Shown: piece by piece, positions 212-295 of the stretch | Position numbering within the stretch: the first letter of the stretch is position 1 | How the letters are laid out: each line of letters begins with the position of its first letter | Source of the DNA: a virus | Lineage: Duplodnaviria > Heunggongvirae > Uroviricota > Caudoviricetes | Direction: 5' to 3' (one strand) | Length of the DNA stretch: 39,690 nt | Virus record (IMG/VR): IMGVR_UViG_2734482571_000007 | Translations under genes and position numbers: made by a program | Notes under the pieces: generated by a model | The model's database searches: none | What the model was told of the DNA's origin: nothing | Seen by the model: the letters and a program-made list of their open reading frames with translations, nothing else

Positions 212-295
212 CGATTTTTTTGATACCGATTTGCATTTCATTTGATACCGCTGAAAAACGCCGATACGCAACTTATTTGATACTAAATCGGCGCT
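212..295. repeat. Prophage right-end transposase-binding repeats (three copies of a TTTGATAC core at 219-226, 241-250, 286-295)
   Basis: Same core occurs three times, inverted, at the opposite prophage end (38661-38820); placement matches Mu attR R1-R3 just outside mom. Confidence 0.6.

Follow-up and report, generated by a model that had tools for sequence, protein, structure and literature searches.

Six terminal repeats of an Sp18-type Mu-like prophage as probable transposase end sites, with TA termini and a 4-bp target duplication

The window, by which we mean the whole stretch of DNA analysed (39,690 bp), holds a complete Mu-like prophage that lies reversed relative to the standard Mu map. 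Its sequence places the element among the Sp18-type Mu-like prophages of E. coli; the Sp18 prophage of the Sakai strain has high DNA identity to it and the same ends. DNA similarity to Mu is confined to ~600 bp of the portal/head region, at 72% identity. The host target is a copy of ISEc8 (IS66 family), in the 3′ part of tnpB, and ISEc8 forms both flanks (1–201 and 38835–39690). Intact ISEc8 reads cttaggcTGTCgccagtcg, with a single TGTC, while the prophage-bearing window has TGTC at either side (cttaggcTGTC/TATAGCGCGG ... CCTGGTTATA/TGTCgccagtcg). From these junctions it follows that the prophage spans 202–38834, a length of 38,633 bp. At megablast level window positions 1–56 are without an ISEc8 match, the matches beginning at 52–57. 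The genes and control features that bear on the argument are as follows.

330–1080, minus strand: mom, in the left part of the window
1021–1266, minus strand: com, in the left part of the window
34522–35463, minus strand: MuB-like AAA+ ATPase gene, adjoining the transposase A gene (Pfam Phage-MuB_C, E = 7.8e-25; AAA_22)
35537–37624, minus strand: transposase A, 695 aa, a distant MuA homologue (Pfam, BLASTP, hhalign)
37627–37857, minus strand: Ner-like gene
37887–37910, no strand: palindrome TTGATAACTAAACTTAGTTATCAA (TTGATAACTAA-AC-TTAGTTATCAA), in the ner-c intergenic region just upstream of ner
38043–38588, plus strand: repressor, an XRE/CI-type HTH protein

Elsewhere in the element, the interval from the invertase to com-mom contains the gene for a DUF6645 protein (684 aa) and small DUF826 and DUF1378 genes (2556–4610 and 4696–5268, both on the minus strand), and a Gin-like recombinase, missing in some relatives, adjoins an invertible tail-fibre segment. 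RefSeq annotates an 80-nt 'tRNA-OTHER' in related prophages at the position equivalent to window ~21298–21377; ARAGORN, run across the whole window, found no tRNA. The gap at 20607–20783, which separates the virion morphogenesis gene from the protease gene, is the place that Mu's central strong gyrase site occupies on the Mu map. A site from Sp18 has been reported to be able to replace Mu's gyrase site (PMC10052514).

Near-identical copies of the prophage (99.6–100%) are found in many E. coli genomes, and two Stx-phage records hold a copy, annotated there as an inserted Mu-like phage. Given that these copies are inserted in many different genes, and that the related Yersinia phage vB_YpM_5 is an isolated phage, this type of element is active.

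The first-pass annotation described three copies of a repeat at each prophage end, and this is borne out by the positions of the TTTGATAC core and by its enrichment. The core occurs seven times in the 39,690 bp, against 0.84 ± 0.87 expected from dinucleotide-preserving shuffles, and six of the seven copies are terminal: at 219, 241 and 276 on the plus strand, and at 38663, 38715 and 38810 on the minus strand. The repeats are direct within each end (219–283) and inverted at the opposite end (38663–38817), with a single orientation per end, and their cores start 18, 40 and 75 nt from the mom end and 18, 113 and 165 nt from the c end. Among the terminal copies, four have the sequence TTTGATACCG and the other two TTTGATACT(A/G). 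The two outermost strings that had been quoted are exact, corresponding to window 212–229 and to the reverse complement of 38807–38824.

A weight matrix trained on 18 such sites from three phages separates the six terminal sites (18–24.5 bits) from the next best in the window (14.5 bits). The consensus is aAAaTcATTTGATACYr, each site extending over ~16–22 bp. The putative sites, together with the tips and target duplications that enclose them, are arranged as follows.

198–201, no strand: left copy of the target-site duplication, TGTC, single in intact ISEc8
202–211, plus strand: mom-end tip (Mu R-end equivalent), 5′-TATAGCGCGG; homology of independent insertions begins at 202
212–233, plus strand: R1 site CGATTTTTTTGATACCGATTTG, core 219–228; 22.7 bits, core at nt 18 in all four phage types
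234–255, plus strand: R2 site CATTTCATTTGATACCGCTGAA, core 241–250; 24.5 bits, 22 bp from R1 in all four phage types
269–290, plus strand: R3 site CAACTTATTTGATACTAAATCG, core 276–285; 23.7 bits, oriented like R1 and R2
38656–38677, minus strand: L3 site CAACTCATTTGATACTGTGGTT; 23.2 bits, kept in relatives
38708–38729, minus strand: L2 site AGGTCTATTTGATACCGATTGT; 18.2 bits, kept in relatives
38803–38824, minus strand: L1 site TGAATCATTTGATACCGACAAG; 23.2 bits, core at nt 18 in all four phage types
38825–38834, minus strand: c-end tip (Mu L-end equivalent), 5′-TATAACCAGG read inward; homology with other insertions ends at 38834
38835–38838, no strand: right copy of the target-site duplication, TGTC, from the comparison with ISEc8

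The seventh copy of the core, TTTGATACCG at 19055 in the major head gene, belongs to the sole internal near-site (19048–19069, minus strand, GAACTTCTTTGATACCGAACAC, 14.5 bits) and is probably there by chance. Two further inverted repeats lie among the terminal sites. The first, a 7-bp repeat CGCCGAT/ATCGGCG (259–265 and 287–293), flanks the R3 core, with TTTTT next on the minus strand, and may be a mom terminator that overlaps R3; a terminator scan near R3 reported nothing relevant, the repeat going unreported because its loop is 21 nt. The second, ATCACCTGT-N16-ACAGGTGAT at 38747–38780, is in the L1–L2 spacer and is shared by every copy of the window and O157 types. In vB_YpM_5, Klebsiella phage Kp4866-3 and a sister group of prophages (L011–L013), the same spacer reads CCGGGAGGA..TTGGAT..CGGGAT and is clearly homologous to nt 31–70 of the Mu left end. 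With two unlike versions across relatives, the L1–L2 spacer is therefore mosaic.

We looked at whether related prophages lack the repeats, a point on which the first-pass annotation had staked its reading, and found them conserved there. The relatives have transposases 82% (vB_YpM_5), 57% (Kp4866-3) and 74% (sister group) identical to that of the window. Among the window type, vB_YpM_5 and Kp4866-3 the end spacers have diverged and the core positions have held: both phages carry (T/A)TTGATAC at nt 18, 40 and 75 (74 in Kp4866-3) of the mom end and at nt 18 of the c end, the R2–R3 distance being 35 bp in relatives except for 34 in Kp4866-3. Sister-group prophages have TTCAAGATA at those same end positions. 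In the sister-group prophage this second motif occurs six times in 42 kb, always terminally, and it occurs nowhere in the window. A search of the species' genomes for related loci returned two, both of the sister group, and homologous proteins, all at least 79% identical among the 120 matches listed, gave no deep alignment.

These data bear directly on the reading of the repeats as chance, or as low-complexity A/T-rich repetition without function. The ends are indeed A/T-rich, but not one of 100 shuffles reached the seven copies observed, and the positions agree to the base among phages with diverged spacers. That reading is effectively refuted, and we regard its probability as negligible.

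The circular record of vB_YpM_5 (MT374853.1, ~4570–4970) joins the phage ends through ~90 bp of non-phage sequence, probably an assembly artefact derived from packaged host DNA. The phage is filed as a Muvirus in GenBank, although its transposase and ends are Sp18-like.

The outermost repeat strings do not begin at the prophage termini. The true ends, 202 and 38834, are 10 bp further out: homology with independently inserted copies begins at the one and ends at the other, and empty ISEc8 confirms both junctions to the base. The TCA at 38822–38824, considered as a Mu-style CA terminus, was rejected, ten more bases being common to all independent insertions.

The target duplication is 4 bp in all 12 independent insertions, each of which is in a different gene. 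Ten are complete prophages, namely that of the window, those of six other E. coli strains and of two O157 strains (including Sakai Sp18), and one of the sister group, with repeats TGTC, CGTA, CGTC, TGCG, CACA, TGTT, GGTA, TACC, TTTA and TGAA; the remaining two are IMG/VR contig pairs with duplications AACA and AGAA. A 5-bp duplication, obtained by reassigning either terminal base to the target, was rejected, the fifth base fitting neither side in any of the ten prophages. Boundaries that leave out the outer T/A pair or the outer TA were also rejected, by the reasoning that the flanks would then not be direct repeats.

At the mom end, every one of the 28 copies examined begins 5′-TA. Nine of these copies come from E. 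coli genomes and 16 from IMG/VR contigs, the others being vB_YpM_5, Kp4866-3 and the sister group; the IMG/VR copies, which have different flanks, start with TATA at this end in 16 cases of 16. The c end is polymorphic, reading TATAAC in the window and 11 others and TGTAAC in O157 and 11 IMG/VR contigs, with TATAACC or TGTAACC at the tip in relatives. In Mu both ends carry CA and the stagger is 5 bp (PMC3562280, PMC3362531), and 5′-TGT has been described as conserved at the termini of Mu-like phages (PMC4378225). In the literature searched, whose coverage many Mu papers lie beyond, we found no publication on the ends or the duplication length of Sp18-type phages, nor any on a 4-bp duplication among Mu-like phages. 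In the Sakai record, the feature 'prophage Sp18' (NC_002695.2 5040971–5079729) misses the first nucleotide of the c end (GTAACC...) and overruns the mom end by 5 nt (...CTATA/TAAAG); the true Sakai Sp18 is 38,755 bp, not 38,759 bp, and is flanked by TAAA.

The transposase of the window is a remote but full-length homologue of MuA, at 23% identity by BLASTP and 26% by hhalign (probability 97.5%, E = 8.4e-12, 587 aligned columns). Pfam matches are to Mu-transpos_C (E = 2e-17) and HTH_Tnp_Mu_1 (E = 1e-8), with no I-gamma or DDE_2 match found in the protein by Pfam, and the I-alpha structure 1TNS matches it at E = 7e-6. MuA binds L1–L3 and R1–R3 via its I-beta-gamma domains (PMC3562280, PMC3362531). 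In the hhalign alignment, residues ~82–200 of our transposase stand opposite I-beta and residues ~201–285 opposite I-gamma. An AlphaFold2 model built from a 15-sequence alignment has a mean pLDDT of 43, with only residues 1–70 confident, and the subdomain assignment therefore rests on this low-identity alignment. The low identity to MuA, and sites that differ from those of Mu, support the suggestion of the first-pass annotation that the transposase has a distinct end specificity.

Comparison with the relatives points to a particular part of the protein. The transposases of the window and the sister group are 87–90% identical over residues 201–600 and 44% identical over residues 121–200. In Kp4866-3, where TTGATAC is kept, residues 121–200 are 59% identical to those of the window, no lower than the remaining residues. 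The TTGATAC group, Kp4866-3 included, conserves two segments that resemble HTH motifs, PGFSCAKAIRF and LSEITLKRWIAAF, both of which are altered in the sister group. The end core thus co-varies with transposase residues 121–200, in a swap represented by one sister group that also differs from the window in Ner, in the repressor and in the first 80 residues of the transposase. We infer that residues ~121–200 are a recognition module for the TTTGATAC core. A separate exchange affects the N-terminus: between the window and O157, residues 1–40 of the transposase are 37% identical and the remainder ~100%, and the operators also differ. Such a joint change of the first 40 residues and the operators would fit a pairing of I-alpha with the enhancer.

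A different proposal is that the repeats are operator-like sites through which the repressor or Ner silences or regulates the ends. The proteins of the ner-c control region are HTH proteins, and TTGATA occurs four times in this 185-bp region against 0.63 per kb in the window. As a count, the recurrence of a TTGATA-type motif in the ner-c operator region, remarked on in the first pass, stands; as an instance of the end-site motif it does not. Two of the four copies are the arms of the palindrome at 37887–37910, and the palindrome follows the Ner type. It is present in three prophages with the same Ner protein, whatever their repressor; the prophages of O157 and the sister group, with other Ner proteins, have GATATCCG repeats in its place. 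The equivalent place in Mu holds CTAAGT-N6-ACTTAG, the window Ner being 45% identical to Mu Ner. Because it tracks the Ner type and resembles Mu's Ner site, the palindrome is probably a Ner-type operator, not a transposase end site, and the best score of the end-site matrix anywhere in the ner-c region is 9.1 bits. Furthermore, the end repeats are identical in the O157 and M3 types, although the repressor and/or Ner genes and the operators of these types differ; the end repeats are not dyads but direct repeats at each end in a Mu-like 22-bp register. We therefore consider it very unlikely that the end repeats serve the repressor or Ner.

Packaging (pac) sites, or sites for the host proteins IHF, Fis or HU, have also to be weighed. 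In Mu, the c end contains the pac signal and the L1–L2 spacer is where HU acts, and both points count in favour of such a role. However, the motif is present three times at both ends, in inverted arrangement, and a pac signal would have to be at only one of them. The motif, moreover, turns to TTCAAGATA along with the transposase block in phages that have the same hosts, and a host-factor site should not switch so. This explanation seems to us just as improbable as the preceding one.

Our conclusion is that, with a probability of roughly 85%, the six repeats are the att sites at which the MuA-type transposase encoded by the prophage itself binds the ends, each end having three in a Mu-like layout. 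This reading draws on the enrichment and placement of the repeats, their separation by the matrix, their conserved positions amid diverged spacers, the TTCAAGATA swap that tracks residues 121–200, the independence of the repeats from the repressor and Ner, the homology to MuA and the activity of the element.

If the transposase acts as MuA does, two tethered helix-turn-helix subdomains probably read each site, with the I-beta-like module (~121–200) reading the invariant TTTGATAC core and the I-gamma-like module (~201–285) the A/T-rich part on the terminus side. The site-bound transposase would then pair both prophage ends and would cut after the terminal A at 202 and 38834, and the cut ends would be joined to target DNA with a 4-bp stagger. 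It is from sequence that we infer physical binding at the end sites, the assignment of subdomains to half-sites and the cleavage chemistry.

Mu is the reference system for DDE transposition. A CA terminus and a 5-bp stagger are treated in reviews as hallmarks common to Mu and HIV integration (PMC3562280). A common and active family of E. coli, Shigella, Salmonella, Yersinia and Klebsiella phages breaks both rules and keeps the end architecture of Mu. We lean, by a modest degree, towards the view that this enterobacterial clade (Sp18, vB_YpM_5, Kp4866-3 and relatives) has an undescribed transpososome geometry unlike that of Mu, with a cut after TA, in place of the near-universal CA, at one or both ends, a 4-bp stagger, a first site that is maybe ~5 bp further from the cut, and an exchangeable I-beta-like module. 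The TA ends, the 4-bp repeats and the module swap are observed in the sequences, and they go beyond the first-pass annotation as the more notable facts. On this view the exchangeable module has given rise to two end specificities, TTTGATAC and TTCAAGATA, which are probably orthogonal, and the two pairs of site and transposase could yield transposition tools orthogonal to MuA. The Sp18-type family offers a natural comparison for asking what sets the length of the stagger, why CA is favoured, and how end specificity evolves by the swap of one subdomain. On the practical side, boundary callers that seek TG...CA and 5-bp repeats will misplace Sp18-type ends, as the offsets at both ends of the Sakai Sp18 feature illustrate.

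Sp18 of E. coli O157:H7 Sakai, which has many E. coli relatives, belongs to the same family as the prophage described here, with DNA ~92–96% identical over most of its length and the same end repeats, mom-end tip and 4-bp duplication (TAAA, in sorM). It is set apart by a different repressor, Ner and operators, by different residues 1–40 of the transposase, and by TG rather than TA at the c end. Packaging of Sp18 has been reported, together with a prediction that the prophage is intact (PMC2669165).

With Mu-type transposable phages in general the prophage shares a MuA-homologous DDE transposase that aligns with MuA over its full length, an adjoining MuB-type ATPase, insertion at many sites with a short duplication, and the gene order c-ner-A-B ... 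com-mom. The layout of the ends is also shared, with three sites at each, R1 and R2 abutting at 22 bp, and an isolated L1 at the tip, from which L2 and L3 lie 95 and 147 bp inward. What defines Mu proper (Mu, D108 and SfMu) is absent, namely the 22-bp consensus, TG...CA termini, a 5-bp duplication and close similarity. The core is TTTGATAC, and the RCGAAAR (CGAAA) block of Mu is in no site; R3 is direct here and inverted in Mu; the repressor is of the XRE/CI-type HTH kind, not the Mu c type; in place of TG/CA, the mom end has a TA terminus and the c end either TA or TG; and the duplication is 4 rather than 5 bp. Thus the repeats are not the L1/R1 sequence of Mu, as had been proposed, but neither are the ends wholly unlike Mu, given their layout and the resemblance of the Mu R-end tip, 5′-TGAAGCGGCG, to the mom-end tip, 5′-TATAGCGCGG (T(G/A)nAGCG).

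The best site matches the 22-bp Mu consensus YGTTTCAYTNNAARYRCGAAAR at 13 of its 20 specified positions. Two registers against this consensus give means of 9.1 and 9.7 of 20, the background being 6.4 ± 2.0, and one of them pairs TCAYTTGA with TCAYTNNA of Mu, which places the sites 5 bp further from the tip than those of Mu. A scan of Mu's own ends locates L1 at nt 6, L3 at 151, R1 at 6, R2 at 28 and R3, inverted, at 56, and did not recover Mu L2. A 5-bp inward shift of the sites relative to Mu is therefore only a possibility, the register being ambiguous.

The enhancer-binding I-alpha domain and, with it, the operator region distinguish Mu from D108. The joint exchange of transposase residues 1–40 and operators between the window type and O157 repeats this pattern, but in the present family the exchange extends to a second module, equivalent to I-beta, and to the end sites along with it. 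An exchange of the latter kind is not known for Mu and D108.

The D3112/B3-type phages of Pseudomonas are alike in inserting at many sites, and their transposases, ~30% identical to that of the window, are closer to it than is MuA. These phages are reported to have conserved 5′-TGT termini (PMC4378225), and their paired insertion profiles are offset by 5 bp (PMC5977238). The transposases of SuMu and Mannheimia phage 3927AP2, at 43–45% identity, are likewise closer to the window transposase than is MuA.
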